A DNA stretch of 64,000 nucleotides from an uncultured Dehalococcoidales bacterium (GCA_964505425.1 CAZDHX010000003.1:28004-92003); one strand, 5' to 3'. Shown: positions 4,852 to 52,289, numbered from the stretch's first letter. The notes: generated by a model from the sequence alone, not told the origin. Made by a program: numbers and translations.

Positions 4852-4883
4852 TGCAACTGCTGCCTCCCCCAGACTCCTCTAGC

Positions 4884-4913
4884 ATTATAACATCATTAAA
4901 GACCCTACTTCAA
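4884..4913 (-). promoter_or_regulatory. Promoter for the GH130 gene pair (minus-strand TTGAAG-N18-TATAAT)
   Basis: Plus-strand CTTCAA at 4908-4913 and ATTATA at 4884-4889. A GGGGGAGG Shine-Dalgarno precedes ATG 4851. Confidence 0.45.
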
Positions 4914-5033
4914 AGAATCTTTATTCTTAACTTGCCTCTGGTGTACGGAATACGATTTGAGCACTGAACAAAACGCTATTTTGTTACTTATTGAGGGATA
5001 TTATAGAAGTGAATCTTCATATAGCAGGCAGAA

Positions 5034-5639
5034 CTATGGCTGGGTTGCCGCCAGAGCGTGGTGGTAAAGCTGCTCGAAGGTCGTGGCTGTAGTGGAGCGA
5101 AAAACATTTTCTGGAACCTTTATATAGTGCCAGGATACCCCGGTGAGCGCTGTGGCATCCTGACACCATTTAGTAGCCCGAGCATCTTTTCGAGCTACCT
5201 CTATATCCTCAAGCCCCTTGGTCTCTACCAAAAACATCTCACCAGAGACAAGCCTAACTATGAAATCAGGATAGTAGTAGCGGACGCCACCCTGAGAACT
5301 TAAGTATTCAATAGCAAAGTGAGTAGCTTCAGTGTTTTTGGCAAAGGCGGCTATATCTGGGACGCCATCAAGAAAGGCGGCGAACTCAGCTTCGTAATGA
5401 GAATCACAGGCAACCAGATTGAATATCGTCTTGTGCGCTGGATATGTCCCCTTAGTCCAGGGGAAAGCATTAGTACCACTCAGCTTGATAGGATTTCCCC
5501 GAATATGGACGGGGTGCGACTCTATAGTTAGGTTATTTATGGCTTGAGCAAAGACAGTGATAATTATCTGCCGGGCATCAGGTTCGCTGAGACGGCGCAA
5601 TATGGCTGGAAGCATATAATACAAGCCGAAAGGAGGCAA
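5034..5639 (-). pseudogene. C-terminal fragment of a type III restriction enzyme Res subunit (PD-(D/E)xK nuclease end only)
   Basis: Only 201 aa, whereas full Res subunits are ~900-1000 aa. It carries YYYPDFIVRL...FLVETKG (D...ExK nuclease motif) and ATKWCQ. An in-frame stop lies immediately upstream of the TTG start, there is no helicase domain, and GC looks lower than the flanks by eye. Confidence 0.55.
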
Positions 5640-5682
5640 GCGGTTGGTCTAGCAAGCCATCGCTAGCTTTTCTCCTAGCAAT

Positions 5683-5724
5683 CTCTTAATCAGCCGGTTA
5701 CAGGTTCGAGTCCTGTGCGGCTCA
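5683..5724 (+). pseudogene. Orphan 3' half of a tRNA-Lys(CUU): anticodon loop, variable loop, T-arm, acceptor 3' strand
   Basis: CTCTTAA (loop, anticodon CTT), TCAGC, CGGTT, ACAGG-TTCGAGT-CCTGT, GCGGCTC-A. It parallels the E. coli tRNA-Lys 3' half. No complementary 5' acceptor strand (GAGCCGC) or D-arm lies upstream. Confidence 0.6.
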
Positions 5725-5747
5725 CTATCCAGTTCACCCGAGCCTCT

Positions 5748-7454
5748 TCACAAGATCAGGTTTAATATCCCGCCGGTGATTAGGGCTGCCGCAATCATTA
5801 TCCCGGTTGACTTTAGCATATTCACTACCCCAAGCTCCCTCAGCAGAACAACAAAGGTGGCAATGCAGGGGAAAAACATAGCCAAGACCACGCTACCTAC
5901 GACCAGTTGTTTGGTGCTCAGCGCCAGCGGAGCTAGCATACCGAGAGCTACATCCTTACGCAGGAAGCCGATAACCACCGCCGTTACCGCTTCCTTGGGC
6001 AGCCCCAGAAAATTGGTTATTACTGGCGCCGTAAAGTTGGCAATAGCCTCAAAAACGCCGAAGAAATAGAGTATGTTGATTACCAAGACAGCCCCAAGGA
6101 TAATGGGAATTGCCTCTGCCAGAAAGCCGTAGACCCGCACCCCCACCTTCTGGAACATTGCCCGCCACTGCGGCAGGCGATAGGGTGGAATCTCAATCAA
6201 TAGCTCGGGGGTGAACCCCCTGACCGAAAGGCGGAGTATAACGCCCAGAATAATCCAGACCAAAAAGAGCGTCCCGTAGACGATAACGACATACTGCGCG
6301 CCACGTGCGCCAACCAAGCCGAAGATCATCGCCTGCAGGGCGGCACAGGGAATGGCAATAGAGATAAGCGTTGCCGCAATGAAGCGCTCTCTTTTACTCT
6401 CCAGGATACGGGTAGCCAGGACAGCCGGCACATTACAACCGAGCCCAAGCAGGGTGGGAATAATAGCGTAGCCGTGCAATCCCAGGCGGTGCATGACAGT
6501 ATCCACCATGACCGCCAGCCGCGGCAGGTAGCCAACATCCTCAAGGAGACTGAGCACCAGATAGAAAGAGATAACGTAAGGCAGGACCATGGCAAAGGGG
6601 ACATATAGTCCACTGGAAAGCAGCCCGAAGGACTGCAAAAAGTCAACCTGACCATTAATGAGCCGGCCAACCACAATATCATGGAGGAAACCGCCACCCT
6701 GCAACATCTCGCTCAGCCTCATCAGCACCGGCGCCCACAGTTTTTCAAACAGAGGGTCAAGGACGTAGCCAATCAGTCCCTCGCCGATAAAACGGACGAC
6801 GATAAAGGATGCCGCCAGGACCGCCAGGGCAATGATGCCGCCGGACAGCGGCTTGACGCTGGCGTCGGAAAGCCTCTCCCGCCAGGTGTGATGGCGATGG
6901 GTAACATGCTGGACCTGGTCAATAATCTTGCCCACCGCCGCCCAGCGCTGGTTACGGCGGCGAAGGGGATGGCGGGGGGAGGTAGCCCTGGGGATATTCT
7001 CCACCAGCTCTTTTATCCCCTCCCCGGTTACGGCAACGGTGGGTATAACCGGCACCCCCAGCAGCTCTCTCAGCTTATCCAGGTTGATATCTATCCCCTC
7101 GTGCTTGGTATCATCCCACATATTCAGGGCGACTATCACCGGAACACCCTTCTCCAAAAGCTGCAGGGTGAGATAAAGGTTTCTCTCCAAATTAGTAGCA
7201 TTGACCACATCTACCACCACGTCCCCGCTGCGGAGCATCTCCGAGGCTACTTCCTCGGCTTCACTGGTAGGCTCTAGGGTATAGGTGCCGGGGACGTCAA
7301 TAACCTCAGCGACCCCCTCCCCCAGCTTCATTTCCCCGCGGGTATAGCTCACCGTAGTCCCGGGATAATTGGAAACAATAACGCGGACTCCGGTGAGACG
7401 GGAGAAGAGGACGCTCTTGCCGACGTTGGGGTTGCCCATCAGGAGTATCTTCAT
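5748..7454 (-). CDS. feoB: Ferrous iron transporter FeoB
   Basis: 568 aa. N-terminal G-domain (GNPNVGKS, DVPGTYTL) followed by a polytopic membrane domain. The start overlaps the feoA stop. Confidence 0.92.
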   Translation of the reverse strand: MKILLMGNPNVGKSVLFSRLTGVRVIVSNYPGTTVSYTRGEMKLGEGVAEVIDVPGTYTLEPTSEAEEVASEMLRSGDVVVDVVNATNLERNLYLTLQLLEKGVPVIVALNMWDDTKHEGIDINLDKLRELLGVPVIPTVAVTGEGIKELVENIPRATSPRHPLRRRNQRWAAVGKIIDQVQHVTHRHHTWRERLSDASVKPLSGGIIALAVLAASFIVVRFIGEGLIGYVLDPLFEKLWAPVLMRLSEMLQGGGFLHDIVVGRLINGQVDFLQSFGLLSSGLYVPFAMVLPYVISFYLVLSLLEDVGYLPRLAVMVDTVMHRLGLHGYAIIPTLLGLGCNVPAVLATRILESKRERFIAATLISIAIPCAALQAMIFGLVGARGAQYVVIVYGTLFLVWIILGVILRLSVRGFTPELLIEIPPYRLPQWRAMFQKVGVRVYGFLAEAIPIILGAVLVINILYFFGVFEAIANFTAPVITNFLGLPKEAVTAVVIGFLRKDVALGMLAPLALSTKQLVVGSVVLAMFFPCIATFVVLLRELGVVNMLKSTGIMIAAALITGGILNLIL

Positions 7455-27029: not shown

Positions 27030-28250
27030 TTATTCCTCCTTCTTTACTCCGCTGACGACAAAGACCGGATTCAAGGTTTCGAAGCGGGTAAGCTCCATAA
27101 CACCAGTACTGCGGGCTATATTTACCAGGGTTATATCAGGCACAAAGCCCCTGGCTTTAAGGGCGTCGACGGCGGCGCTCAGGTTTTCCAGGGCAACGAT
27201 GTTCATAACAATGCGCCCGCCGGGCTTTAGCCTTCGGTTGACCAGGTCCAGTATCTCCTTAACTCTCCCCCCGCTACCCCCGATAAAGACGGCGGTGGGG
27301 TCGGGCAAACTGTTTAAACCATCCGGGGCAAAGGTCTTGACCACCTCAACATTAGAGGCATTAAATTTTCGGATATTTTTTCTGATTATGGCTACATCTT
27401 TTTCGTTCTTTTCTATAGCGTAGATATGCCCTTTTCTGACAAGAAAGGAGGCTTCAATAGATACCGCCCCCGAGCCGGCGCCAATATCCCAGACGATACT
27501 GTTTTCAGTAAGCGCCAGCTTGGCAAGGCTTATTGACCTCACCTCCTGCTTGGTGATAAGCCCCTCCCGGCGGCGATGGAAGTTTTCTTCGGGAATCCCC
27601 ATTATTCGCTGAGGTCTCGGCTTGGATTTCTCCCTTAATAAAATCAGGACGTTGAGTGGAGAAAACTTCATCTTGACCAAGCCGCGTAAATCGGTCTTGA
27701 CGACCTTTTCTTCTTTGCTGCCAAGGTCCTGGCAGACATAAGCCCAGTAGCCGTCAACGCCGTGTTCCAGCAACACCCTGGCAATAGCCGCCGGGGTATG
27801 CTTATTATCAGTAAAAATGCCGATTTTAGCATTTAACCCCACCACCCCGACAATCTCCGCGATGGGCCTGGAGTGGACGCTGACAAAGACGGCGTCCTCC
27901 CAGCTTTCTTTAATGCGGGCAAAGGCCAGCTGCATGGCGCTTACGTTGGGTATTATGTCAATAACGCTCTTGCCCAACTTAGCCGTCAGATAGCCGGCTA
28001 TGCCGTAAAAATTGGGTTCACCGGAAGCCAGCACGACCATTCGTTTCCGCCCCAGGTTTCTCTCGATTAAATCGGCTACTTCAGCTAGGTTATTTTTGAT
28101 AGTTATTTTCTCCCCGCTCAGCGAGGGAAACATCCGAATTAATCGCCTACCACCGAAGACAATCTCCGCCCGGTTTAGCAGGCGGCGTGCTTCCGGCAAC
28201 AAGCTTCCCTCGGGTGCCACCCCAATAATATGGACCCTATGTCTTGACAT
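27030..28250 (-). CDS. cbiE/cbiT: Fused CbiE/CbiT (cobalt-precorrin-7 C5-methyltransferase / cobalt-precorrin-6B C15-methyltransferase, decarboxylating)
   Basis: The N-terminal half is CbiE-like (HIIGVAPEG, ASGEPNFYG). The C-terminal half is CbiT-like (VWDIGAGSGAVSIE). The ATG at 28250 with a GGGAGGG Shine-Dalgarno is preferred over the track start at 28277, which overlaps cbiD. Confidence 0.88.
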   Translation of the reverse strand: MSRHRVHIIGVAPEGSLLPEARRLLNRAEIVFGGRRLIRMFPSLSGEKITIKNNLAEVADLIERNLGRKRMVVLASGEPNFYGIAGYLTAKLGKSVIDIIPNVSAMQLAFARIKESWEDAVFVSVHSRPIAEIVGVVGLNAKIGIFTDNKHTPAAIARVLLEHGVDGYWAYVCQDLGSKEEKVVKTDLRGLVKMKFSPLNVLILLREKSKPRPQRIMGIPEENFHRRREGLITKQEVRSISLAKLALTENSIVWDIGAGSGAVSIEASFLVRKGHIYAIEKNEKDVAIIRKNIRKFNASNVEVVKTFAPDGLNSLPDPTAVFIGGSGGRVKEILDLVNRRLKPGGRIVMNIVALENLSAAVDALKARGFVPDITLVNIARSTGVMELTRFETLNPVFVVSGVKKEE

Positions 28251-29328
28251 CAGCCCTCCCCAGAATAATGCCGTCATAGCTGCTCATGATACATTCCACC
28301 TCAAGTTTTCCCCCCACCTTATCACGGCACTTTTCTGCCGCCAGCAGACAGAGCTTATTACAGAATCTTTGGCTATGTTCCGGGGGGAGCATCTTGCGGA
28401 GGTGATTGGCGGTGACGGCTCCTCTCAAGGACCGGACTACCTTCTCGGGCACACCACAACCTGCCGCCACTCCCGCCAGGAAACCGATGTCCACCCTGGA
28501 ATCGCTGACATTGGTATACATGTGTCCGGCGGCAAGCTTGCTCAGCTTACCCATCATGCCCCAGATGGTTACTTTCTCAAAAGACCTCCGGGCGCATTGC
28601 TCAAGTGAGTAGCCGATAAAATCTCCGGCTTGAACGAAACATTCTTCAGCCAGTTTCAGCTCGCCCTGGGCGAATTTCTCGCTTCTCCTGCCCGTGGTCA
28701 ATACTACCTGGCGGCAGCCGCAAGCTACGGCTACATCCAACGACTGAAAGAGGCAAGCCTTATAGGCGCTAACCGAATAGGGGATGACAACCCCGGTAGT
28801 GCCCAAAATTGAGATGCCACCGATTATCCCCAGACGCGGATTCAGCGTTCTTCTGGCTAACCCTTCTCCTTCGGCTACCGAGATTACTACTTCAATGCCC
28901 TTGCCGTCATTTTCTGGCATTACCTCTCTCACCGAGCTCTCTATCATCCGGCGGGGCACGGGGTTAATCGCCGCCATACCAATCGGTATTTCCAGCCCGG
29001 GCTTGGTAATTATCCCCACTCCCTCCCCTCCCCCGATATCAATCCCCGGCTTATCCTTCCAGGAGACCTTAGCCCAGATTTCCGCCCCATGGGTGACATC
29101 CGGGTCGTCACCGGCGTCTTTTATCACCGAGCACACAGCCTGGCTTTTTCCGAAGGTGCAGTGGCTGATTTTGAATAGAGCCTGTCGTCCGGCAGGGAGA
29201 GAAACCTGAACTTGCTTGACCGCCTCCTGCTTGAGCAGAGCGATAGTCGCTGCCTGCGCTGCGGCGGCAGCACAGGCTCCGGTGGTATAGCCGGAGCGCA
29301 GAGACCGTTTATCTCGTCTCACCGTCAT
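28237..29328 (-). CDS. cbiD: Cobalt-precorrin-5B C1-methyltransferase
   Basis: 363 aa. LRSGYTTGACAAAAA, KDAGDDPDVTHG and GTTGVVIPYS. Confidence 0.9.
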   Translation of the reverse strand: MTVRRDKRSLRSGYTTGACAAAAAQAATIALLKQEAVKQVQVSLPAGRQALFKISHCTFGKSQAVCSVIKDAGDDPDVTHGAEIWAKVSWKDKPGIDIGGGEGVGIITKPGLEIPIGMAAINPVPRRMIESSVREVMPENDGKGIEVVISVAEGEGLARRTLNPRLGIIGGISILGTTGVVIPYSVSAYKACLFQSLDVAVACGCRQVVLTTGRRSEKFAQGELKLAEECFVQAGDFIGYSLEQCARRSFEKVTIWGMMGKLSKLAAGHMYTNVSDSRVDIGFLAGVAAGCGVPEKVVRSLRGAVTANHLRKMLPPEHSQRFCNKLCLLAAEKCRDKVGGKLEVECIMSSYDGIILGRADVKT

Positions 29329-30170
29329 ACGGCTTTCCTCCCCATCACTCTCAATAGCTCCCGCCTCGCCTCACCAATAGTCAGCGGCATCTCCGGGAAA
29401 TCTATTCCCTCTCTCTTTTGCAGAATCTCAACGAGATGGGCTACCCGTGGCAGCCTTAGCTCTGCTTCCCTAATCATATCGGTATCGGTAAACACCTCCG
29501 CTGGCGGTCCTTCGGTGACTATCTTACCCTTACTCATAATAGCGACGCGGTCGGAGAATAGAGGCACCAGCTCAACATCATGGGTAGCCATTATCATGGT
29601 CGTTCCCCTCTCCTGGTTCAGTTTCCGGAGTAAACGCATAATGGAACTGGCACCCTTGGGGTCCAGACCGCTGGTCGGTTCATCCAATAAAATTATTTCT
29701 GGCTCCATCGCCAGGACGCCGGCAATAGCCACCCGCCTTTTCTGCCCGAAGCTCAAGGTGTGAATGGCTCGGTCGGGAAGCTCGGCGGCACCCACCAATT
29801 TCAAGGCTTCGGCGGTTCTCCGCGTCACCTCAGCCGGCTCTAGCCCCAGGTTCACCGCGCCAAAGGCGACATCCTGCCCCACGGTAGCGCCGAAAAGCTG
29901 GTCGTTAGGGTCTTGAAAGACCATCCCCACCCGCCGGAAAATCTCTTCGTCTCTGAAGAAACGAAGCTCCCTGCCGTCCAGAAATACCTTGCCCAAGGAC
30001 GGTTTTAGTAAGCCGTTTAGCTGTTTCAGTAGCGTTGTCTTGCCGCAACCGTTAGCCCCCAGAAGGGCTAAGAATTCGCCGCCCCCTAACTCCAGGTTGA
30101 TTTTACCTAGAGCCGGGGTAAAACCGTCATAGCTAAAGGACAAGGCTTCGGTCTTTATCATGCTCTCCAC
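29325..30170 (-). CDS. cbiO: ECF cobalt transporter ATPase
   Basis: 281 aa. Walker A GANGCGKTT, signature LSFGQKRRVAIAG and Walker B ILLDEPTSGLD. Confidence 0.9.
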   Translation of the reverse strand: MESMIKTEALSFSYDGFTPALGKINLELGGGEFLALLGANGCGKTTLLKQLNGLLKPSLGKVFLDGRELRFFRDEEIFRRVGMVFQDPNDQLFGATVGQDVAFGAVNLGLEPAEVTRRTAEALKLVGAAELPDRAIHTLSFGQKRRVAIAGVLAMEPEIILLDEPTSGLDPKGASSIMRLLRKLNQERGTTMIMATHDVELVPLFSDRVAIMSKGKIVTEGPPAEVFTDTDMIREAELRLPRVAHLVEILQKREGIDFPEMPLTIGEARRELLRVMGRKAV

Positions 30171-30940
30171 TGCCCGATAAGATAGAGAATTGCCAGCACG
30201 GCGGTTAAACCAACGGCAGCCATAAAATCCTTCCGGCCAAAGTGTCCGGCATAATCAACGGCCAGAGCGCCGCTGTAACCTCGCGCTATCATCGCCTCAA
30301 AGACCCTCTCCGCCCGGTCGTAGGCTCGTAAGACCAAAATACCGCCCAGCGTGCCCACCGACCTCATACCCCGCCGCCAGTTGTCGTAGCCCAAGCGTAC
30401 CCTCTGGGCATCTTTTACGGCTATCGCCTCCTCGATAAGGACAAAGATGTAGCGATAAATCAGCAGCGACAGCTCAACAAAGACTTTAGGCAACCGGAAC
30501 CAGCGAGCCGCCCTGAGTAGCCGGTGGGCTGGCGTGGACATACCCAAGAACAGAATTAGTGACATGCCACCGATGACGCGGCACATGATTAAGAGACCAT
30601 GAGCCAGACCCTCTTCGTAGCCCACCAGGTCGAGTCCCAAAAAGGGGACGGCAAACAAAGGGGTGGTGCCATAAAAGAATAGCTGCGTAATCAGCACCAC
30701 TGCCGCCATGACCAGAGGCATAATCAGCCTCAGCATAAGTAGCCTTGGCGGAATTCTGATAGCCAGCAGGGTAGCCAGGCAAAAAACAGCGATGGCTATC
30801 GGCGTATAGATGCTCGGCGATAAGAGATTAATCACCAGGGCAACCACGGTAAAGGCTGTCTTGGTGCGTGCCTCTATCCCGGTCACCCAGTTCTCTCTGT
30901 GGGCGAAGGCATCGGAAAAAATACCGCTTTTATCAAACAT
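30158..30940 (-). CDS. cbiQ: ECF cobalt transporter T component
   Basis: 260 aa polytopic membrane protein in the cbiMNQO position. It carries a CbiQ-like RA..R motif region (AERVFEAMIARGY). Confidence 0.85.
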   Translation of the reverse strand: MFDKSGIFSDAFAHRENWVTGIEARTKTAFTVVALVINLLSPSIYTPIAIAVFCLATLLAIRIPPRLLMLRLIMPLVMAAVVLITQLFFYGTTPLFAVPFLGLDLVGYEEGLAHGLLIMCRVIGGMSLILFLGMSTPAHRLLRAARWFRLPKVFVELSLLIYRYIFVLIEEAIAVKDAQRVRLGYDNWRRGMRSVGTLGGILVLRAYDRAERVFEAMIARGYSGALAVDYAGHFGRKDFMAAVGLTAVLAILYLIGQWRA

Positions 30941-30960
30941 CTATATCAGCCAGCAGCGCT

Positions 30961-31260
30961 TCACCTCCCCGCTTTTTCAGCAATAAGCCTCCTCCAGTAG
31001 TAGCCGGTAACAAATCCACCCACTGCCCCACCGAAGGCGAAAACAAAGAGCAACAGGTCACCTTTATCGGTGTTGATGAAAGGCTCGCTTGGTTCCCTGC
31101 CGGCATCAGTGGCATATTTTTCAATGACGCTAACGTCCACCCCTCCCCAGGGACCCTCCTCTCCCTCAGGTACCTGCTTGGACAGGGCAAGCCACCCCCA
31201 GACGGCTAGAGCCACCAAAACGACCACGATAACAGTGGTGATTATCCTGGAACTTTTCAT
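30961..31260 (-). CDS. cbiN: Cobalt transport protein CbiN
   Basis: 99 aa with two TM helices flanking a soluble loop, in the position between cbiM and cbiQ. Confidence 0.8.
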   Translation of the reverse strand: MKSSRIITTVIVVVLVALAVWGWLALSKQVPEGEEGPWGGVDVSVIEKYATDAGREPSEPFINTDKGDLLLFVFAFGGAVGGFVTGYYWRRLIAEKAGR

Positions 31261-32051
31261 TAGTCACCTCCTTTTACCAGACTGGGCACTGGCTTGAAAG
31301 CTCCGGGGATTATGCGGGTTAATAACTCCGGCCGGCGGTGATAGACGAATGTTACCACTCCCCCGGTGAATAACCCCTCCAGAATGCCCAGTGGCAACTG
31401 AGTGGGAGCGAAGGCAACGGCAATGGCACCGAACATGCTCCATAATGAGCCAGTACCGTGTAAAGCCGAGGCTAGCTCAAAAGAGGTTGTAGCGTATGTT
31501 GCCCAGTCACCCAAGAGTCCGGCGGCGAAGGCAGCCACAAATATGGGGGCGTTGAACCTCCGGAACAAAACAAAGACACCAAAGCCAACGAAAGAACCAA
31601 CCAGAGCCATAGAAACGATATTAGCCCCCCAGGTAGTTATACCGCCGTGTGCCAGAAACAGGGCCTGGATAAGAAGGGCCAGCGCCCCGAGAACAGTGCT
31701 GATAAACGGCCCCACCAGGATTGCCCCCAGGGGGGTGCCGCAGGGGTGGGAACAGCTTCCCGAAACCGGGACCGGGATGGGGAAAACGGAAATTAGGAAT
31801 ATCAGCGCCCCGGCGATGCCGAGCAGAGGCAGCAGCCCTCTTACCTCTCTGGTCTTCCTTCTGATGATGATAATGCCAATGACCACAAATACGGCGGCTA
31901 TCACGTACCATATCGCTGCCCAGCTGGCGGGTAGAATCCCCTCAGCGATGTGCATGGCATATGCCGGGGTGGGGCACAATAACAGCCCGATGGCAAGCAC
32001 CAGTGCCAAGGCAATATGAGTCCTGAACCAGCTATAACCTTTATTGAGCAT
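31260..32051 (-). CDS. cbiM: Cobalt ECF S component CbiM, with a cleavable signal peptide exposing MHIAEG
   Basis: 263 aa. ...LLLCPTPAYA|MHIAEGILP: an AxA cleavage site sits directly before the metal-binding Met-His N-terminus typical of CbiM/NikM. Confidence 0.88.
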   Translation of the reverse strand: MLNKGYSWFRTHIALALVLAIGLLLCPTPAYAMHIAEGILPASWAAIWYVIAAVFVVIGIIIIRRKTREVRGLLPLLGIAGALIFLISVFPIPVPVSGSCSHPCGTPLGAILVGPFISTVLGALALLIQALFLAHGGITTWGANIVSMALVGSFVGFGVFVLFRRFNAPIFVAAFAAGLLGDWATYATTSFELASALHGTGSLWSMFGAIAVAFAPTQLPLGILEGLFTGGVVTFVYHRRPELLTRIIPGAFKPVPSLVKGGD

Positions 32052-33072
32052 TCAACCTACCTCCAGCAATCTTTAATAGAGTATTAACCGTAGCCACCGC
32101 CAGGGCGCTGCCGCCCCGAGTTCCGGCTACGGTGACATATGGTATATCCCGTTTCATTAATTCATCCTTTGATTCCTTCGCCTGCACAAAACCGACCGGC
32201 ATCCCCACAACAAGAGCCGGTCTTACCCCGTCATTATCAATCAACTCCAGCAGAGCCAGGAGGGCGGTGGGGGCATTGCCGATGGCGACTATGGCACTAT
32301 TAAGCCTCGCCCCCAGATGACGCATTGCCGCCGCGGCCCGGGTGGTATTCGGTTTTAGCCCCTCCGCTTCATCCATGGCACAAGAAACAGAACAGCCGCA
32401 GGCTTCAGCCAGACGCCGATTAATGCCGGCAGCTACCATCCGAACGTCGGTAAAGATAGGACTGCCTTTAGCTATGGCGCTTATGCCACCGGAGACCGCC
32501 GAGGAGCTGAACCTTACCAAGGGAACAAGCTGGGGATCGCCACCGGCATGGACAACATGCTTTACTACCATTCGCTCCTCTGCGGAGATTTTTAGCGAGG
32601 GAGGTAAAAGTCCTTCCACAATCTCCATACTCCTCTGCTCAATGTCCTGGGGGGAAGCCAGCGAAAGATGGGCATCCGGCAAAAGCTCCGGAGCCGCTTC
32701 CTGAATGCGCCTTGCCACGCGAGCTATTAGAAGTTCATCGTTACCGAGGGTATTGGCAGCAACAAATTGCACCTTTGGATAAATGCCCCTGAGCTTCTCA
32801 ATAAGCTGAGGGATGTCCTCGGTGATGTGCCGCCCTCTAAAAAGAAAGTAGGGCACGATTACTATCCGCTCCACCCCCCACCCTGCCAGAGACGCCACCG
32901 CTTCCTCAAAAGTGGGGCGATTAAACTGGAGTGCCGCCCCGATAACCTCAACGCCGGGGGCTAGGAGGGGCTTTACCCCTTCGCTGAGCCTCTTCAAGGT
33001 CTCAGTGACCTCGACACTACCCCGTTCACCACGACTGCCGTGGCATAAGATAACTATCCCCGTCTGCGGCAT
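32041..33072 (-). CDS. cbiX/cbiC: Fused small CbiX (sirohydrochlorin cobaltochelatase) / CbiC (cobalt-precorrin-8 methylmutase)
   Basis: The N-terminal ~120 aa are GIVILCHGSRG...VIVPYFLFRGRHITEDIP (CbiX-S type). The C-terminal ~210 aa are CbiC-like (HAGGDP, IFTDVRMV, IGNAPTAL, VVGMPVGFV). ATG 33072 is preferred because the track start at 33141 lies on the -35 hexamer. Confidence 0.85.
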   Translation of the reverse strand: MPQTGIVILCHGSRGERGSVEVTETLKRLSEGVKPLLAPGVEVIGAALQFNRPTFEEAVASLAGWGVERIVIVPYFLFRGRHITEDIPQLIEKLRGIYPKVQFVAANTLGNDELLIARVARRIQEAAPELLPDAHLSLASPQDIEQRSMEIVEGLLPPSLKISAEERMVVKHVVHAGGDPQLVPLVRFSSSAVSGGISAIAKGSPIFTDVRMVAAGINRRLAEACGCSVSCAMDEAEGLKPNTTRAAAAMRHLGARLNSAIVAIGNAPTALLALLELIDNDGVRPALVVGMPVGFVQAKESKDELMKRDIPYVTVAGTRGGSALAVATVNTLLKIAGGRLNAQ

Positions 33073-33098
33073 ATTACACAACCCGACCTGATTAAAAA

Positions 33099-33141
33099 CA
33101 AGTCTGCTTGTTAGTATACAAGCGCCGATTTTACCTGTCAA
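33099..33141 (-). promoter_or_regulatory. cbi/hem super-operon promoter (minus-strand TTGACA-N17-TATACT) with the overlapping half-site array CTTGT-N6-ACAAG-N4-CTTGT
   Basis: -35 is plus-strand TGTCAA at 33136-33141 and -10 is plus-strand AGTATA at 33113-33118. Inverted pentamers at 33119-33123, 33108-33112 and 33099-33103 span the -10 and the TSS. The leader to ATG 33072 is only ~30 nt. Confidence 0.6.
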
Positions 33142-33970: not shown

Positions 33971-34897
33971 CTAGCCTCTCCTATTCTTTATGGTACAGGA
34001 AACGGAACACTGGTCGCACTCAGTAGTGCATGGCTCAACATGAATAGTGATATGAGTGCGGGGCAATTTCCTCTTTATATCTCGTTCCAGGTGGTCGCAG
34101 ACGCGGTGGGCTTCCGCCACACTCTCATGCTTGGGCATTACCAGGTGCAGGTCAACGTAGCGATAGCTCCCCGCCTTGCGAGTGCGCAGGTCGTGAAAGG
34201 CAACCATACGATAATTATACTTCATAATACAAGCCCTTATAACCGTCTCCTCCGCCTCAGGCAACTTGACGTCAATCAGCCCCCCAAACGAGCCTTTCAG
34301 CACATCATAACCTGTTTTCATAATAAGCAAGGCTACTGCCAGGGCGATAACAGGGTCTAGAATATTAAGCCCGGTAAAGCGTACGGCTAACAGCCCTCCT
34401 AGCACCGCCGCCGCGGAATAGACATCAACGGCAATATTTTGCGCGTTTGCCCGCAAGGCTATTGAGTCCACTGCCTTGGCTACCTTGGACAGGTAGCGGG
34501 AAAGAAAGATGCTGGCTATCATCGAGACCAGCATTACCGCTATACCGGCTTCAGCCAGCTCCACCACTGCTCCGGTTATTATTCTCTGTACCGCCGAATA
34601 AATAATCAAGCCGCCGACAACTAAAATCAGGCCCGCCTGCGCCACAGCGGCGATGTTCTCCACCTTGCCATGACCAAAGGGGTGCTCCCTATCGGCAGGC
34701 TTGGTGGCTATTCTAATAGCCACGAAGGTAACGACCACGGCAAGCAAATCAAGGGAGCTATCCACCGCCTGCGCTAGTATGCTGATGCTGCCGGTGATAA
34801 CCGCCACCGCCACCTTGAGCACTATCAGCCCAATTACCACGATGAGCATGAGCTTAACGGCGCTCTTTTGCTCGGAGTCTCCCCTTTTCCTGGCCAT
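33971..34897 (-). CDS. czcD: Cation diffusion facilitator (CzcD/FieF-type) metal exporter
   Basis: Six TM helices with the ...SLDLL... and HxxxD-type motif region, then a cytoplasmic domain (VDLHLVMP...HITIHVEP). ATG 34897 (MARKRGD, AGGAG Shine-Dalgarno) is preferred. The track start at 34942 lies inside the riboswitch terminator stem. Confidence 0.88.
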   Translation of the reverse strand: MARKRGDSEQKSAVKLMLIVVIGLIVLKVAVAVITGSISILAQAVDSSLDLLAVVVTFVAIRIATKPADREHPFGHGKVENIAAVAQAGLILVVGGLIIYSAVQRIITGAVVELAEAGIAVMLVSMIASIFLSRYLSKVAKAVDSIALRANAQNIAVDVYSAAAVLGGLLAVRFTGLNILDPVIALAVALLIMKTGYDVLKGSFGGLIDVKLPEAEETVIRACIMKYNYRMVAFHDLRTRKAGSYRYVDLHLVMPKHESVAEAHRVCDHLERDIKRKLPRTHITIHVEPCTTECDQCSVSCTIKNRRG

Positions 34898-34915
34898 CTC
34901 ACTCCTGCCTAAGAC

Positions 34916-35002
34916 GAAAAAACCCGTGGTGCCTGGTCCCACGGGTTCAAGTCCCGCTGCTGCAAGTTCAGCCCGGTTCTATAAAGACCTGTTCCAGGCT
35001 CT
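34916..35002 (-). promoter_or_regulatory. NiCo (czcD-motif) riboswitch with an intrinsic-terminator expression platform
   Basis: The minus strand reads AAGAGCCUGGAACAGGUCUUUAUAGAACCGGGCUGAACUUGCAGCAGCGGGACUUGAACCCGUGGGACCAGGCACCACGGGUUUUUU. The conserved ACAG / CGGGCUGAAC / GCAG / CGGGAC / CGUGGGAC blocks match my recollection of the NiCo consensus. P1 is CCUGG/CCAGG. The terminator stem ACCCGUGG/CCACGGGU plus U6 shares its 5' arm with the aptamer. A CDF exporter lies downstream. Confidence 0.7.
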
Positions 35003-35083: not shown

Positions 35084-35653
35084 ATGCTATCAGCAATATT
35101 ACTGGCCGGCGGCGAATCAAAGCGCATGGGCAAGCTAAAGCAACTGATGCCCCTGGGCAAAAGCACCATTTTGGAGCAAGCCATTGATAACCTCTTAAGT
35201 TCAACAGCGGATGAGGTTATCGTGGTGGTGGGGTATAAAGCGGAAGAGATAACAAAAGCCATAGCCGCCAAGCCGGTAAAAATAATTGCTAACCCAAACT
35301 ACCAGCAGGGGATGAGCACCTCGATAATAACCGGACTAATTCTGGTTGACCCCCGGGCTGAGGCGGTTATGCTCGCCCTGGGCGACCAGCCCATGGTGAA
35401 CAGCCAGACGATTAACCAATTAATAGCCGAATTTCATAACCACGATAAAGGTATTGCCCTCCCCACCTACAGGGGCAAGCGGGGACACCCGGTCATCTTT
35501 GCCACCAAATATAAAGCGGAGCTGCTCAAGTTGAAGGGTGACATCGGCGCCAAAGAGATAATCGAACACCACCCCCAGGACGTCCTTGAGGTATCCGTTG
35601 GCTCTGAGGGCGTCATCACTGATATTGATACCGAAGAGGACTACCCTGCTTGA
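35084..35653 (+). CDS. mocA: MobA/MocA-like nucleotidyltransferase (molybdenum cofactor cytidylyl/guanylyl-transferase family)
   Basis: 189 aa. ILLAGGESKRMG..K.L, MSTSI and LGDQP motifs. Confidence 0.8.
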   Translation: MLSAILLAGGESKRMGKLKQLMPLGKSTILEQAIDNLLSSTADEVIVVVGYKAEEITKAIAAKPVKIIANPNYQQGMSTSIITGLILVDPRAEAVMLALGDQPMVNSQTINQLIAEFHNHDKGIALPTYRGKRGHPVIFATKYKAELLKLKGDIGAKEIIEHHPQDVLEVSVGSEGVITDIDTEEDYPA

Positions 35654-35681
35654 CAAAATGCTATATCGCCTGTAATATAGC
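35650..35681 (+). promoter_or_regulatory. Promoter (TTGACA-N17-TAATAT) overlapped by ModE-type operator 1, GCTATAT-N8-ATATAGC
   Basis: TTGACA at 35650-35655 and TAATAT at 35673-35678. The perfect inverted repeat lies at 35660-35666 / 35675-35681. Confidence 0.7.
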
Positions 35682-35689: not shown

Positions 35690-36073
35690 ATGGCCACCAG
35701 GACACCAAGATTCCGACCAAAAAAGCCTCCCCACCTTTCCCACCACCCCCGACCCGGCTATACGGTAAGAGGCAGGGTATGGCTGGAGAAGGACGGCGAG
35801 CTCTATATGGGCTGGGGCAGGGCAATGCTCCTGGAACGCATTGAGCAGCTTGGCTCAATAGCCGCCGCTGCCAGGTCAATGAAGCTGGGCTACCGCAATG
35901 CCTGGCTCTGGATAGAATCCGCCAACCGCCTGGCGCCATCGCCCCTGATAGAAAAGACCGCCGGCGGCGCTGGTGGGGGGCATGCCCGGCTAACCGATGA
36001 AGGGAAAAAGGCGGTTACCCGCTATAAGAAGCTGCGGGCTAGGTTTGAGGAATTCCTGAAAGAGGCGAAATAA
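35690..36073 (+). CDS. ModE N-terminal-domain-like wHTH regulator (no Mop/di-Mop domain)
   Basis: 127 aa. GRAMLLERIEQLGSIAAAARSMKLGYRNAWLWIESAN matches the ModE/LysR-like HTH block. Confidence 0.75.
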   Translation: MATRTPRFRPKKPPHLSHHPRPGYTVRGRVWLEKDGELYMGWGRAMLLERIEQLGSIAAAARSMKLGYRNAWLWIESANRLAPSPLIEKTAGGAGGGHARLTDEGKKAVTRYKKLRARFEEFLKEAK

Positions 36074-36087: not shown

Positions 36088-36109
36088 GCTATATCAAATG
36101 CAATATAGC
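36088..36109 (+). promoter_or_regulatory. ModE-type operator 2, (C)GCTATAT-N8-ATATAGC, upstream of the ABC importer
   Basis: Half-sites at 36088-36094 and 36103-36109 are identical to operator 1. It lies 23 nt upstream of GTG 36132. Confidence 0.65.
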
Positions 36110-36131: not shown

Positions 36132-37142
36132 GTGAAAAAGTTACTGGTTATACTACTAGCCGGTCTGTTATTACTCACCACTATCACCGGCTGTCCCACC
36201 CCCAAGGAGGAGGAACCGGTGGGCATGGCGGTGGAGTTTATGGCCCATGCCGCCAGTGCCTATATCAGCCAGGACAAAGGGTGGTTTGAGGAGGAAGGAC
36301 TGGAGCTCACCGCCTACGAAAGCTATGCCACCGGCATGGCTCTGGCGGCGGCTTTAGCCAGGGATGACATCCAGGTCGCCTACATCTGCCTGATACCGGC
36401 GATAAACGTCTACGCCAACGCCGGCGTACCCATAAAAGTCGTCGCCGGGACGCATAAGTACGGCTACGGCTTAGTCGTTGACCCCAATAAGATAAAAACG
36501 GTCAACGACCTGGAAAAGCCCGGGATTCGCCTCGGCTGTGTCCAGGTAGGCGGCGCCGTTGACGTGCTGATGCACAAGGCAATAGATAAGTATAATCTTG
36601 ACGAAGAAAAGGTGTTGGCCAACGTCCAGCGGATGAACCCGCAAAAGCTGACGCTGGCGGTCAAGATGGGACAGCTGGATGCCGCCTTTATCCCCGAGCA
36701 CTGGGCGGCCATGACCGAGGAATTCGGCTTCAGCATGCTACTGACGAGTCAGGACATCTGGCCGGATATGCAGGGCAGCGTCCTGGTAGTCAAGCAGAGC
36801 CTGATTGATAACCACCCGGAGGTCGTCCGGAAGCTGGTAAAGGTGTCGCAAAGAGCGACCGACTGGTTAAATGAGCACCCCGATGAAGCCGCCGAGGTCG
36901 TGGCTCGACAACTGGGAGCGGTTGGTAGTAACCTATTCCCGGTAGAAATAGCCGACGTGGTTGCCAAGCTGGAAATCACCCCCGCAGTTATGCTACGCTC
37001 TATGGGCAGGATGGACTACACTACCAGTATTGACCCCCAAGAGATCCAGACGACCATAGACTACATCGCCGGGCTGGACTATATAGAAAATAGCTTTAAC
37101 GCTGAGGACATTCTGGATTTGAGCTTCCTTGAAGGTGAATGA
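36132..37142 (+). CDS. ABC transporter substrate-binding lipoprotein, NMT1/SsuA/TauA (NitT/TauT) family
   Basis: 336 aa. Lipobox LLTTITGC. DLEKPGIRLGCVQVGGAVDVL...GQLDAAFIPEHW has the SsuA-like pattern. It is not ModA-, TupA- or WtpA-like by eye. Confidence 0.75.
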   Translation: MKKLLVILLAGLLLLTTITGCPTPKEEEPVGMAVEFMAHAASAYISQDKGWFEEEGLELTAYESYATGMALAAALARDDIQVAYICLIPAINVYANAGVPIKVVAGTHKYGYGLVVDPNKIKTVNDLEKPGIRLGCVQVGGAVDVLMHKAIDKYNLDEEKVLANVQRMNPQKLTLAVKMGQLDAAFIPEHWAAMTEEFGFSMLLTSQDIWPDMQGSVLVVKQSLIDNHPEVVRKLVKVSQRATDWLNEHPDEAAEVVARQLGAVGSNLFPVEIADVVAKLEITPAVMLRSMGRMDYTTSIDPQEIQTTIDYIAGLDYIENSFNAEDILDLSFLEGE

Positions 37143-37897
37143 TGCTTAAGAAACTGAGACCGGGGTGGGGACTGCTGCCGATAGCCATATTCCTGGGTAT
37201 CTGGGAACTGGTGGCTAGGCTCAACCTCGCCCCGGGGCACTTCTTCTTCCCCCCATTTTCGGTGGTGGTCCTGGAATTCTATTACCTTACCGCCAACGGG
37301 GTGCTGGGGGACAACTTCCTCGCCAGCCTGACAAGGGTCCTCATTGGCTTCACCACTGGCTCTCTAGCCGGCATAGCGGTGGGCATATTAATGGGGTGGA
37401 GGGAGAATTTTAACAAGGCGCTGCACCCCATAATCAGCCTCTTTTACCCCATACCCGCCCTCGGCTGGCTGCCCCTGCTCATGCTGTGGATTGGCATAAA
37501 CGAAATGCTGCCCATCGCCATAATATTTATCTGCTCGTTTTTCCCCGTCCTCTACAACACGGTTACCGGCATCAGAAACGTGGACAAGGACTATATCCGG
37601 GTAGCCAGAACGCTGGGAGCATCCGATGCCAAGATTTTAGCCACCGTAGCCATCCCCCTCGCCCTGCCCAATATCTTTACCGGGCTGAGGCTGGAAGCGG
37701 GCATGGCGTGGCGGGTAATAATCGCCGCCGAGATGGTGGCTATTCCCACCGGCATTGGCGCCCTGCTCATGAAAGCTGAGAGCCTCATCCGCATCGACAT
37801 CATCGTTGTCTGTCTCATCGTACTAGCCGTGATGTGCCTCGCCTTTGAAAAATTCTTCCAGTATATGGAAGCCAGAATAACCACCAAGTGGGGATGA
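37139..37897 (+). CDS. ABC transporter permease (SsuC/TauC-type)
   Basis: 252 aa with six TM helices. EAA-loop region RVARTLGASDAKILATVAIPLALP. It shares an ATGA overlap with the binding-protein gene. Confidence 0.85.
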   Translation: MMLKKLRPGWGLLPIAIFLGIWELVARLNLAPGHFFFPPFSVVVLEFYYLTANGVLGDNFLASLTRVLIGFTTGSLAGIAVGILMGWRENFNKALHPIISLFYPIPALGWLPLLMLWIGINEMLPIAIIFICSFFPVLYNTVTGIRNVDKDYIRVARTLGASDAKILATVAIPLALPNIFTGLRLEAGMAWRVIIAAEMVAIPTGIGALLMKAESLIRIDIIVVCLIVLAVMCLAFEKFFQYMEARITTKWG

Positions 37898-37898
37898 T

Positions 37899-38960
37899 AT
37901 GCCTTCTATTGAGCTACAGAATATATGCCAGTATATCTGCCACAATGTGAACCTGAAGATAAGGGATAAGGAACTAATGGTCTTACTGGGACCGAACGGT
38001 GCCGGCAAGACGACGCTGGTCAATATCATCGCCGGACTGACTGACTACGAGGGTTCGGTGCTCTTTGACGGGGTGGCGGTGGATAAGTTGCCGGCTAGCA
38101 AGCGAGAGGCAGGCTACCTCTTTCAGGAGCTGCTCCTCTTCCCCCACCTCGATGTCGCCGCCAATATCGCCTACGGCTTAAGAGCCAAAAAACAACCTCG
38201 AGACCAGATAGAAGCCAGAATAAACCAGCTTCTCCAGATGATGAAGATAGAGCACCTGGCATCACGCTACCCAAAGCATCTTAGCGGGGGTGAAAAGCAG
38301 CGGGTGGCTCTCGCCCGAGCCCTCGCCCCCTCACCCAAGGTACTACTTCTTGATGAGCCCCTCGCCAGCCTGGATGTGCCCACCACCAAGTACCTGCGCA
38401 CCGAGCTAAGGCAGATCCAGCAAAGGCTGGGGATTACCACAGTATACGTCACCCACGACCTCCAGGAGGCTGAAGAAATGGCGGACAGGATAGCCGTCAT
38501 CCAGGACGGTTATCTGGAACAGGTAGGTAAGCCGGAAGAGGTATTCTTCTACCCCCGGAACGAAACGGTCTCTGATTTTATCGGGGCGCCAAATATCCTG
38601 GACTGCGACTACTGCCGCCGTCTGGGGAGAGGGGTTGTGGAGGTCGGCTGTGGTGGGCTGACGATAATCGTCCCTCACGTCGGGAAGACGGCAAAAAGGA
38701 TTGCCATCTTCCCCCATGATATCCATATATCTGAAACCAGGCCACCGGGACCGGCGGTGAACCGCTTTAAGGGGACTGTTACCAGCGTCAACCCCACCCA
38801 TGAGGCAGTTAGCATCGGGCTCAAGGCGGGAGCCAAAGAGCTAATCGCCCGGATGCCCCACCACATATTTGAAGATATGGACCTGGCGACGGGTAAAGAG
38901 GTCTTCGTAATCCTGAAGCTGAGAAGAATAAGGGTCTATGAAGACAAAGATAGGGACTAA
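37899..38960 (+). CDS. ABC transporter ATPase with a C-terminal TOBE/Mop-like domain (ModC/WtpC/CysA-type)
   Basis: 353 aa. GPNGAGKTT, LSGGEKQRVALARAL and LLLDEPL. The C-terminal ~110 aa (FKGTVTSVNPTHEAVSIGLKAG...GKEVFVILKLRRIRV) are TOBE-like. Confidence 0.85.
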   Translation: MPSIELQNICQYICHNVNLKIRDKELMVLLGPNGAGKTTLVNIIAGLTDYEGSVLFDGVAVDKLPASKREAGYLFQELLLFPHLDVAANIAYGLRAKKQPRDQIEARINQLLQMMKIEHLASRYPKHLSGGEKQRVALARALAPSPKVLLLDEPLASLDVPTTKYLRTELRQIQQRLGITTVYVTHDLQEAEEMADRIAVIQDGYLEQVGKPEEVFFYPRNETVSDFIGAPNILDCDYCRRLGRGVVEVGCGGLTIIVPHVGKTAKRIAIFPHDIHISETRPPGPAVNRFKGTVTSVNPTHEAVSIGLKAGAKELIARMPHHIFEDMDLATGKEVFVILKLRRIRVYEDKDRD

Positions 38961-39031
38961 GCCAGCGGTCAGATTCGAACTGACGACCGGCGGTTTACGA
39001 AACCGCTGCTCTACCCCTGAGCTACGCTGGC
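38960..39031 (-). tRNA. tRNA-Thr (anticodon CGU); CCA not encoded
   Basis: Manual fold: GCCAGCG-TA-GCTC-AGGGGTA-GAGC-A-GCGGT-TTCGTAA-ACCGC-CGGTC-GTCAG-TTCGAAT-CTGAC-CGCTGGC-T. Confidence 0.92.
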
Positions 39032-51113: not shown

Positions 51114-52289
51114 ATGAAATTAGTAGTTGTGGGTCTAGGACAATGCGGCGGTAGAATCGCCGATGAGTTTCTACGCCTAAACAGGAGAGCACGCAGCCAG
51201 CGAGGGATTGAGATAATTACCGGCGCCTTTGCCGTAAACACCGATGCCGCTGATTTAACCGGGCTTAAATACATAAGCCCTGATTACCAGCATAGAATCC
51301 TCATCGGAGGTCGGCGGACGGGCGGTCATGGGGTCGGCAAAATCAATGAGCTGGGGGCTGAGGTCGCCAAAGAGGACTCGGACAAGATTGTAGACGCCAT
51401 AAGAACCGCCAAGCGCTTCTTTGAGACCGATGCCTTCTTCATTATCGCCGGTGTTGCCGGCGGTACTGGCTCGGGGGCATTGCCAATAGTCACCCAGATG
51501 ATAAGAGACCGCTATGGCGATAAGCCGGCTTATGCCCTGGCTGTCCTCCCCTTCGGTCATGAAGAGCAAACCGAGGAAAGAACTATCTATAATGCCGCCA
51601 CCTGCCTTAAGTCCCTCTATAAAGTGGCTGATGCCGTCTTCCTCATTGACAATCAAAGGTATGTGAGGAAGGACTTCTCGCTTAGAAATAATATGGATAA
51701 GATAAATGCATTAATCGTTGACCAATTCTACAACATGCTTTGCGCCGGCGAGGAGACAAAACAAAAGCATATCGGGGCAAAGATGCTTGATGCCGGAGAC
51801 ATTATTCAGAGCCTGGCTGGCTGGACAACGATAGGCTATGGCAAAGCAATGGTACCCGCCTTCAATTGGTTCCACCTCTTCTCAAAGGATTTTAGAACTA
51901 AGAGCACCGAGACCCACCGCGGGATTCAAGCCATGGATGAAGCCATCAGCGAGCTCTCGCTTAAATGCAACCCTGCTGATTCAGGCAGGGCACTATACCT
52001 CGTCTCAGGGCCACCAAAGGAAATGAATATGGACCTGATTAAGGAACTGGCAGACTACCTCAGGGGGATGAGTCCGCAGGCAGTAATAAGGAACGGCGAC
52101 TATCCCCGGGAAAAGGGCGCCATTGATGTAACCGTAGTCCTGTCTGAGTTCAACGCCCTGGACAAGATAAGGGGCTACTTTGAAAGAGCCACCGATGTTA
52201 TCCACGGTCTCAAACAAAGACGTGGCGAGTTTGAGGACAAACTTAAAGAAGTAGACGAGATAGCCAAGGACCTTCCCTCACTACTATAA
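51114..52289 (+). CDS. cetZ: CetZ-like tubulin/FtsZ-superfamily GTPase
   Basis: 391 aa. GLGQCGGRIADEF (T1), AVNTDAADLTGL, GHGVGKINELGAEVAKED, DAFFIIAGVAGGTGSGALP (T4 GGTGSG signature), LIDNQRY, MLDAGDIIQSL (T7-like), LVSGPP and NGDYP. These align block by block with Haloferax CetZ1 as I recall it. Confidence 0.8.
   Translation: MKLVVVGLGQCGGRIADEFLRLNRRARSQRGIEIITGAFAVNTDAADLTGLKYISPDYQHRILIGGRRTGGHGVGKINELGAEVAKEDSDKIVDAIRTAKRFFETDAFFIIAGVAGGTGSGALPIVTQMIRDRYGDKPAYALAVLPFGHEEQTEERTIYNAATCLKSLYKVADAVFLIDNQRYVRKDFSLRNNMDKINALIVDQFYNMLCAGEETKQKHIGAKMLDAGDIIQSLAGWTTIGYGKAMVPAFNWFHLFSKDFRTKSTETHRGIQAMDEAISELSLKCNPADSGRALYLVSGPPKEMNMDLIKELADYLRGMSPQAVIRNGDYPREKGAIDVTVVLSEFNALDKIRGYFERATDVIHGLKQRRGEFEDKLKEVDEIAKDLPSLL

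Follow-up and report, generated by a model that had tools for sequence, protein, structure and literature searches.

Results

Gene content of the locus

We analysed a 64,000-nt stretch of DNA from an uncultured Dehalococcoidales bacterium (GCA_964505425.1, CAZDHX010000003.1:28004-92003; hereafter the window, with positions counted from its first letter), which carries a compact ATP-binding cassette (ABC) importer operon in a setting suggestive of molybdenum or tungsten (Mo/W) metabolism. Three open reading frames (ORFs), all on the plus strand and tightly packed, encode a 336-residue substrate-binding lipoprotein (36132..37142), a 252-residue permease (37139..37897, with a 4-nt overlap) and a 353-residue ATPase (37899..38960). 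On the same strand just upstream lie mocA, for molybdenum cofactor cytidylyltransferase (35084..35653), and a gene for a 127-residue winged helix-turn-helix regulator (35690..36073). A first-pass annotation of this DNA had placed the three-gene operon at exactly these positions and had described the two upstream genes as mocA-like and ModE-N-like, and the models agree: MocA scores 196.3 bits on TIGR03310 (cutoff 186.45) and matches Pfam NTP_transf_3, and the 127-residue protein matches the ModE N-terminal domain. In 11 related loci mocA likewise precedes the regulator or the operon. Public annotation of the transporter reads 'NitT/TauT family' at JGI and generic ABC transporter substrate-binding protein at NCBI.

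The same annotation had regarded the importer as a hybrid, with a NitT/TauT-type binding protein and permease and an ATPase carrying a C-terminal TOBE/Mop-like domain like that of ModC, WtpC and CysA. Pfam and NCBIfam scores, given below for each protein, show an ATPase different in kind from its two partners, and the hybrid description is therefore correct.

The binding protein

The binding protein has a lipobox (ITGC, Cys21) and belongs to a distinct subfamily of the NMT1/SsuA fold. It scores 93 bits on Pfam NMT1_2 and 72.5 bits on NMT1, both above their cutoffs; among NCBIfam models SsuA_fam gives 130.9 bits (cutoff 163.5), SaoX is second best at 75 bits, and the TauA models give 30-33 bits against cutoffs of 304-490. 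The first-pass annotation had judged by eye that it resembles no known Mo/W binding protein, and for ModA and WtpA the models agree: neither of their NCBIfam models matched at E<=0.01 (a TupA binding-protein model was not looked for), and PF13531 matched partially and marginally at 25.9 bits over residues 118-203. Genuine ModA and WtpA proteins encoded at related loci reach 177-400 bits on the same two models. An AlphaFold2 model (pLDDT 88.7, pTM 0.85) has as Foldseek neighbours TauA and SsuA (top matches 6ssy and 3ksx), a thiamin-binding protein, ThiY, PqqT, NrtA and CmpA, all at 14-21% identity, and the best sequence E-value against the PDB is ~1e-8. A tight grouping with characterised sulfonate, taurine or thiamine-precursor binders, which the annotation had named, together with a pocket incompatible with oxyanions, among the outcomes that would count against its proposal, was not seen, identity being at most 21% and the residue signature private to the subfamily.

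The subfamily is small, comprising 56 cluster representatives at E<=1e-30 among 1.84 billion, many of them fragments. Full-length members down to 31% identity share the signature E35, H39, Y/F65, G68, C86, H108, G140, E189, W210, G215 and S216, and these eleven positions (with Tyr at 65), together with S290, Q306 and Y317, are invariant in 137 sequences. Just below the subfamily the pattern changes: Gly takes the place of Cys86, Leu, Phe or Gln that of Glu35, Asn, Thr or Ala that of His108, and Cys-Cys or Thr-Thr that of Gly215-Ser216. Cys-Cys is the SaoX-type motif, which Haft placed in the binding cleft and proposed to bind metal (bioRxiv 10.1101/2022.07.06.499078).

In E. coli TauA the sulfonate is held by Gln30 and the backbone amides of Gly61, Gly79 and Thr132, and the amine by Glu106 and Asp205 (PMC6906117). 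Aligned to TauA, Cys86 falls at Gly79, Thr67-Gly68 at Ser60-Gly61, Gly140-Ala142 at Ser131-Thr132, and Gly215-Ser216 at Leu204-Asp205; His39 takes the position of Ser32, which lies in the TauA pocket, and the sulfonate-binding Gln30 is replaced by Met, Thr or Asn. Read this way, the backbone anion site of the fold family seems to be retained. The specificity positions (Glu/His/Cys/His) would be compatible with an oxyanion and hint at direct ligation of a metal centre, and the signature set suggests that binding may involve more than the plain hydrogen bonds that would hold a free oxyanion. The sites of ModA and TupA rely on hydrogen-bond donors, and that of WtpA has carboxylates as well; ModA, TupA and WtpA are not known to employ a Cys and two His, as conserved here.

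The permease and the ATPase

The permease (Pfam BPD_transp_1) is TauC/SsuC/NtrB/SaoP-like. Its NCBIfam scores are 150 bits for SaoP, 145 for TauC (cutoff 342), 129 for NtrB and 124 for SsuC, as against 30.9 bits for ModB (cutoff 182.6) and 22.6 for WtpB (cutoff 340); judged by these scores it is not of the ModB/WtpB/TupB (CysT-like) type. Since the binding protein and the permease miss all equivalog cutoffs, we class the system as a NitT/TauT superfamily member of no named subfamily.

The ATPase has a nucleotide-binding domain of the WtpC/CysA/PotA/MalK group followed by a C-terminal regulatory domain. WtpC is the model on which it scores highest, with 305 bits for residues 12-346 of 353 and thus below the cutoff of 440. 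PhnT2 (287 bits) and PotA (268) come close to this, and SaoA (163), TauB (145) and NrtCD (141) score far less. The protein aligns along its full length to Methanosarcina acetivorans ModC (PDB 3d31). The regulatory domain, residues 286-341 (38754..38921, plus strand), matches TOBE (PF03459) at 31.9 bits, above the cutoff of 22.3. By its model scores and its TOBE domain the ATPase in the window is thus not of the TauB/SsuB/NrtD type, which is ~230-280 residues long and lacks TOBE. Taken alone, the domain finds its best PDB match, a weak one (E 0.14), in the Azotobacter molybdenum-binding protein ModG (1h9j), and of the Mop motif SARN-x3-G only the Asn and Gly are kept. TOBE is present in all clade-A orthologues with an available 3' end and is restricted to the Dehalococcoidales/Atribacterota/Chloroflexota clade, where every ATPase (binding protein at least 60% identical to that of the window) has it. 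It is absent from a Firmicutes branch (see below), whose ATPases are 229-246 residues long; a short ATPase of this branch also scores best on WtpC, at 241.6 bits.

The regulator and its candidate operators

On TIGR00637 (ModE_repress) the regulator matches profile positions 2-82 of 100 with 75.3 bits, below the curated cutoff of 98.5, and on PRK10676 (ModE) it scores 49.6 bits; we therefore refer to it as ModE-N-like, and not as a certified ModE member. Pfam and NCBIfam scans of the protein found no Mop/TOBE domain, the ModE N-terminal domain being the only match, and the loci yielded no separate Mop gene, a tblastn search with the TOBE domain matching ATPases only. Metal sensing without a Mop domain has already been flagged as a problem for the ModE-N proteins of Desulfovibrio (PMC545781). 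A ModE-N regulator gene is adjacent in 21 fetched loci, from Dehalococcoidales and from metagenome-assembled genomes (MAGs) labelled Deltaproteobacteria.

The perfect ModE-type operator that the first-pass annotation had seen before the operon is real, and there are two exact copies of it. GCTATAT-N8-ATATAGC occurs as operator 1, GCTATATCGCCTGTAATATAGC, at 35660..35681, and as operator 2, GCTATATCAAATGCAATATAGC, at 36088..36109, 23 nt before the start codon of the binding-protein gene. Allowing up to two mismatches, the palindrome occurs three times in the window against 0.19 expected, and none of 100 shuffles reached three. A sigma-70-like promoter for the regulator gene, TTGACA-17-TAATAT (35650..35678, plus strand), has 10/12 consensus matches and is a consensus match only, from a promoter scan that as a whole showed no significant enrichment; its -10 box falls within operator 1, which is probably the site at which the regulator gene is autoregulated.

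Both sites have equivalents in 18 loci, ~470-570 bp upstream of the binding-protein gene for operator 1 (consensus GTTATATC-N6-AATATAAC) and 29-119 bp upstream for operator 2. Across these loci the TATAT/ATATA cores hardly vary, operator 2 departing from them once in 18, and the spacers are free, a pattern expected of a protein-binding site. The window palindromes fit the E. coli ModE consensus ATCGnTATATA-N6-TATATAnCGAT (PMC545781), and their 7-N8-7 geometry is that of the M. acetivorans ModE box, RTTATGT-N8-RCATAAY, which was verified by electrophoretic mobility shift assay (PMC12327845). With a ModE-type DNA-binding domain and TATAT palindromes at the promoters, the locus is, on sequence grounds, a candidate member of a ModE-type regulon.

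Relatives of the operon and their neighbours

A first scan covered species-representative genomes and yielded 45 loci, which come from Dehalococcoidales/Dehalococcoidia, Atribacterota, other Chloroflexota, MAGs labelled Deltaproteobacteria and two Firmicutes MAGs. Binding protein, permease and ATPase keep this order wherever the contig extends far enough, and under the same proviso the permease gene always adjoins the binding-protein gene. Dehalococcoidales have the ModE-N gene immediately upstream; the Atribacterota-type operon runs ModE-N (a homologue ~30% identical), MoCF-domain protein, DUF364, DUF364, binding protein, permease, ATPase, and in several such loci a related CGTTATA-N-TATAA box lies behind the regulator gene. 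Several Atribacterota loci also contain a GC-rich hairpin repeat (TTCCTCCCCCTTGAGGGGGGAGGATTA) in one to three copies between the ModE-N-like and MoCF genes (L015 3226-3290; L023 1726-1791; L025 3982-4123; L030 3121-3254), in the spot occupied by the ModE-like box in sister loci.

A further search for homologues, this time starting from the Moorellaceae orthologue, reached a Firmicutes/Synergistota/Nitrospirota branch at 38-47% identity, which includes the cultured Dehalobacter restrictus, Dehalobacterium formicoaceticum and Acidaminobacter hydrogenoformans. Its module is binding protein, permease, short ATPase and DUF364. DUF364 is adjacent in 33 of 56 loci; the other recurrent neighbours are a MoCF_biosynth-domain protein, XdhC (closest to an aldehyde-oxidoreductase maturation factor), YqeB (10 loci), YqeC (5 loci) and MocA. 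DUF364 has been reported beside molybdate/tungstate uptake genes in archaea and bacteria (PMC2954201; bioRxiv 10.1101/2024.03.05.583561), and its sole characterised member cyclises a derivative of S-adenosylmethionine (SAM; PMC12930334). In Moorellaceae AZ2 two genes for tungsten aldehyde:ferredoxin oxidoreductase (AFOR) are adjacent.

Canonical transporters also occur next door. The D. restrictus operon continues into modA (177 bits, cutoff 62.5), modB (222 bits, cutoff 182.6) and a modC-like gene, and a Nitrospirae MAG has a modE-N/modABC cluster beside the operon, so the system is not simply a ModABC replacement. In all, the Mo/W context recurs in at least five phyla.

Two further clusters were seen beside these modules. 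In Thermosyntropha and Dehalobacterium the transporter-DUF364 module is adjoined by genes for NifX/NifB-like proteins with a 'Nitro_FeMo-Co' domain and for ATPases of the MinD/ParA type into which 4Fe-4S ferredoxin domains are inserted (L040 3482-5933; L047 12565-16330). In the Chloroflexota locus L026 a 114-residue ORF just upstream of the binding-protein gene (5446-5790, plus strand) matches only positions 538-610 of 905 of a molybdopterin-dependent aldehyde oxidoreductase model and is probably a gene remnant.

Riboswitches and other regulators at orthologous operons

Three operons of distant orthologues (38-47% identity; Moorellaceae and D. restrictus), namely L041, L046 from D. restrictus, and L049, have a molybdenum cofactor (Moco) riboswitch, RF01055, directly upstream. 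The scores are 79-85 bits (gathering score 36), and all three aptamers have the P3 stem. Locus L026 instead has two tandem RF01055 aptamers without P3 at the head of a plus-strand gene string that includes the transporter, DUF364 and two wtpA-like genes, one on either side of this pair; Regulski et al. assign aptamers that lack P3 to the tungsten-cofactor (Tuco) type (PMC2408646). The 64-kb window itself contains no RF01055 aptamer.

At other loci a divergent regulator with HTH_17 and PBP_like domains stands directly upstream (L053, L054) or two genes away (L046, L047). We take this domain make-up to be that of the tungstate-responsive TunR family, and our term 'TunR-like' goes by domain architecture; the family is reportedly the subject of a 2013 study by Kazakov et al. 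in J Bacteriol. Three unrelated Mo/W-sensing devices, namely ModE-type operators, Moco riboswitches and TunR-like regulators, therefore converge on one transporter family in several phyla. The Mo/W-responsive context that had been read from the window alone is thereby supported, and is stronger than first seen.

Some features near these regulators concern other genes. In L053 a Moco riboswitch (5649-5783, minus strand, 79.2 bits) precedes a TauE/SafE-family (PF01925) permease gene (4757-5572, minus strand), which adjoins the TunR-like regulator and the transporter operon; this permease may be another unrecognised Mo/W-related transporter, and a TauE-domain gene is also found in L046 (15449-16585). 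Fluoride riboswitches after the DUF364 gene of L050 (11324-11385) and before a CLC-type channel gene in L053 (3363-3435) are probably unrelated neighbours.

Other features of the window

A search of the 64-kb window found no canonical Mo/W transporter, DUF364, XdhC, YqeB or YqeC gene, and the genes downstream of the operon that were scanned are housekeeping genes. A tRNA gene on the opposite strand (38960-39031, minus) abuts the ATPase stop codon, and because a tRNA lies at the matching place in L001 (8818-8871) the 3' boundary of the operon is conserved in that lineage. Upstream and divergent from mocA is a gene for a 323-residue membrane protein (33971-34942, minus strand), by eye resembling a cation-diffusion-facilitator exporter, directly preceded by a NiCo riboswitch (RF02683, 34932-35006, minus strand; 38.3 bits, gathering score 37). 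Further upstream, 28237-33141 (minus strand) appears by eye to be a cobalt-uptake and cobalamin-biosynthesis cluster, with a CbiM-like protein at 31260-32051 and, at ~29490-30104, an ABC ATPase paralogue 33% identical to that of the operon. At 51114-52289 (plus strand) the window encodes a tubulin/FtsZ-family protein whose C-terminal domain is of the CetZ type (PF21011, 69.8 bits). CetZ is considered a tubulin of archaea with a role in cell shape, and its occurrence in an apparent Dehalococcoidales genome is unusual.

Discussion

Proposed function and mechanism

We consider it rather probable that the operon encodes an ABC importer belonging to a Mo/W-cofactor homeostasis regulon, its cargo most likely being molybdate, tungstate or both, or else a closely related inorganic form of Mo/W, for instance a thio-oxyanion. 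The substrate is something we infer, and the same applies to the direction of regulation, to how a regulator lacking a Mop domain would sense metal, and to the part played by TOBE. In the mechanism we propose, the extracytoplasmic lipoprotein would capture the substrate in a cleft that keeps the backbone-amide anion site of TauA/SsuA and adds Glu35, His39, Cys86, His108, Glu189 and Ser216, and would hand it to the TauC-like permease, presumably a homodimer. The WtpC-like ATPase would power transport, and in the clade that has it the TOBE domain could mediate trans-inhibition as in ModC. The ModE-N-type regulator would repress transcription at the two GYTATAT-N8-ATATARC operators, one overlapping its own promoter and the other just upstream of the binding-protein gene.

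Several observations weigh against this interpretation and should be considered together. The regulator falls short of the ModE-domain cutoff and has no sensor domain, and in the ATPase TOBE domain the Mop motif SARN reads PAVN, with an invariant Val where the Arg would be. Our pocket assignments come from alignments at 15-20% identity, and the Glu/His/Cys/His set, so placed, looks more like the ligands of a metal centre or a cation. Members of the fold bind organic cofactor precursors (thiamin, formylaminopyrimidine, pyrroloquinoline quinone (PQQ)). The D. restrictus operon running into a canonical modABC suggests a non-redundant substrate, and the window itself contains neither a Mo/W enzyme nor a DUF364 gene.

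Alternative substrates

The organic ligands of the fold and the D. restrictus gene string are also points on which an organic or complexed Mo-cofactor-related substrate could be argued, for example a pterin, molybdopterin or a Moco precursor taken up for salvage, or a Mo/W chelate formed through the DUF364 enzyme. In that case control through Moco and ModE would answer to the supply of cofactor and not of metal. Heteroaromatic ligands are well represented in the fold, with thiamin (4nmy), formylaminopyrimidine (ThiY, 3ix1) and PQQ (PqqT, 9b1u); three of the neighbours, MoCF_biosynth, XdhC and MocA, deal with molybdopterin or Moco; and the presence of this system and modABC in one D. restrictus gene string suggests different substrates for the two. 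Pterin- or flavin-like compounds have been suggested as substrates of DUF364 (PMC2954201), and its one characterised member works on a SAM derivative (PMC12930334), but in archaea DUF364 genes are also found within canonical modABC and wtpABC operons, which encode binding proteins for free oxyanions (PMC2954201; bioRxiv 10.1101/2024.03.05.583561). WtpC is moreover the closest match of the ATPase, and comparison of gene neighbourhoods across the loci found no exporter or chelator-biosynthesis cluster conserved with the operon. We know of no precedent for bacterial uptake of Moco or molybdopterin, and on balance consider an organic substrate rather unlikely.

A bolder version of the Mo/W proposal, which we regard as unlikely, would make the lipoprotein a fourth class of Mo/W binding protein in which Cys86, His39, His108 and Glu35/Glu189 ligate the metal directly, adapted to thio-species and coupled to a 'split ModE'. 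Thiomolybdate and thiotungstate would be the dominant forms where Dehalococcoidia, Atribacterota and anaerobic Firmicutes live, in sulfidic and anoxic surroundings, and adaptation to them, if true, would explain coexistence with ModABC. By 'split ModE' we mean the speculation that, in the Dehalococcoidales/Atribacterota clade, the ModE-N regulator uses the TOBE domain of the ATPase in trans as its metal sensor, by analogy with MalK-MalT signalling. Bearing on this idea, the ModE-N gene of L051 also adjoins a modC without TOBE.

It is unlikelier still that the importer supplies another element to the same enzymes, either a selenium species for Se-dependent molybdenum hydroxylases or a thiophilic cation (Ni/Co/Zn/Fe). 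YqeB and YqeC, maturation proteins of the selenium-dependent Mo cofactor, would suit the former, but they are absent from most loci. A cation would suit the signature residues, which are classical metal ligands, the SaoX-type Cys-Cys proposed to bind metal at 215-216 of the sister subfamily (bioRxiv 10.1101/2022.07.06.499078), the zinc with which the fold neighbour 3un6 was crystallised, and the position of the window operon beside a transporter gene (a cation-diffusion facilitator by eye) under a NiCo riboswitch. Against both stand the three independent Mo/W-specific devices that control the operon family, and in none of the 56 loci was selD, or a nickel/cobalt regulator or riboswitch, linked.

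An ordinary sulfonate, taurine, nitrate or thiamine-precursor importer lying next to Mo genes by chance, as the NitT/TauT placement of the binding protein and permease by Pfam and JGI would allow, is very improbable: the SsuA_fam, TauA and TauC equivalog scores are far below cutoff (131/163.5, 30-33/304-490 and 145/342) and TauA Gln30 is replaced, grounds on which we rejected a sulfonate/taurine importer, no thiamine pyrophosphate (TPP), SAM or sulfur-starvation signals were seen, and the Mo/W context recurs across phyla.

Significance

The anaerobic metabolism of carbon, nitrogen and sulfur is founded on Mo and W enzymes. To our knowledge the acquisition of these metals is served only by the ModA, WtpA and TupA binding-protein families and the type II MolA system, and a full-text literature search found no description of the present family as a Mo/W transporter; the three-gene pump is probably an undescribed route by which anaerobes take up Mo/W. 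If so, the scoring of Mo/W uptake capacity in genomes and metagenomes would change, as would the view of how these metals reach subsurface Dehalococcoidia and Atribacterota. Recognition of thio-oxyanions by the Cys/His site would further alter the picture of metal speciation and offer a route to Mo/W bioavailability in sulfidic settings. DUF364 and the sensor-less ModE-N regulators also gain a defined, testable partner, and the cultured carriers D. restrictus, D. formicoaceticum and A. hydrogenoformans make experiments feasible.

Comparison with known systems

The cyanobacterial nitrate and bicarbonate importers NrtABCD and CmpABCD belong to the same wider NitT/TauT group, and NrtA/CmpA show that an NMT1-type fold can bind a small inorganic oxyanion. 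They are ~14-17% identical to the binding protein described here and ~100 residues larger, and the regulatory domain of NrtC/CmpC is a second NrtA-like domain where the present ATPase has TOBE. TauABC and SsuABC share with our system the binding-protein fold, the permease family and a backbone-amide anion site at helix N-termini in both lobes. Identity is 15-20%, however, and both the sulfonate-binding Gln and the taurine-binding Asp205 of TauA are replaced; the ATPase is not TauB/SsuB-like, carrying TOBE, and it is Mo/W devices that regulate the operon and not sulfur starvation.

The SAO system (SaoX/SaoP/SaoA; bioRxiv 10.1101/2022.07.06.499078) supplies the nearest named permease model in SaoP, and SaoX is NMT1-type with a proposed metal-containing substrate. 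The sister subfamily has the SAO Cys-Cys motif where the proteins described here have Gly215-Ser216; these proteins have no selenocysteine and no Cys-Cys, no MerB-like SaoL or other SAO gene accompanies them, and SaoA lacks TOBE. Membership of the SAO system was rejected on these grounds and on the scores (SaoX 75/300, SaoP 150/295 and SaoA 163/360 bits).

With E. coli ModE and the single-domain ModE-N proteins the regulator has in common the winged-helix N-terminal domain and a 7-N8-7 TATAT-type operator at transporter and regulator promoters; unlike E. coli ModE, it has no Mop/TOBE molybdate-binding domain in its 127 residues. ModABC of E. coli, WtpABC of Pyrococcus furiosus and TupABC of Eubacterium acidaminophilum are, like the present system, Type I ABC importers that rely on an extracytoplasmic binding protein. 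Among ATPases ours comes nearest to WtpC/ModC, if below the WtpC cutoff, and in the TOBE clade it has their architecture of nucleotide-binding domain plus TOBE; control resembles that of canonical mod/wtp operons in its ModE-type operators, Moco riboswitches and TunR-like regulators, as do the DUF364 and Mo-cofactor neighbours. In contrast to ModA, WtpA and TupA the binding protein is of the NMT1/SsuA fold family, the permease is TauC/SsuC-like, and in some genomes the system co-occurs with canonical modABC. As we read it, then, this is an importer with the job and regulatory logic of ModABC, WtpABC and TupABC, built on a different lineage of binding protein and permease.

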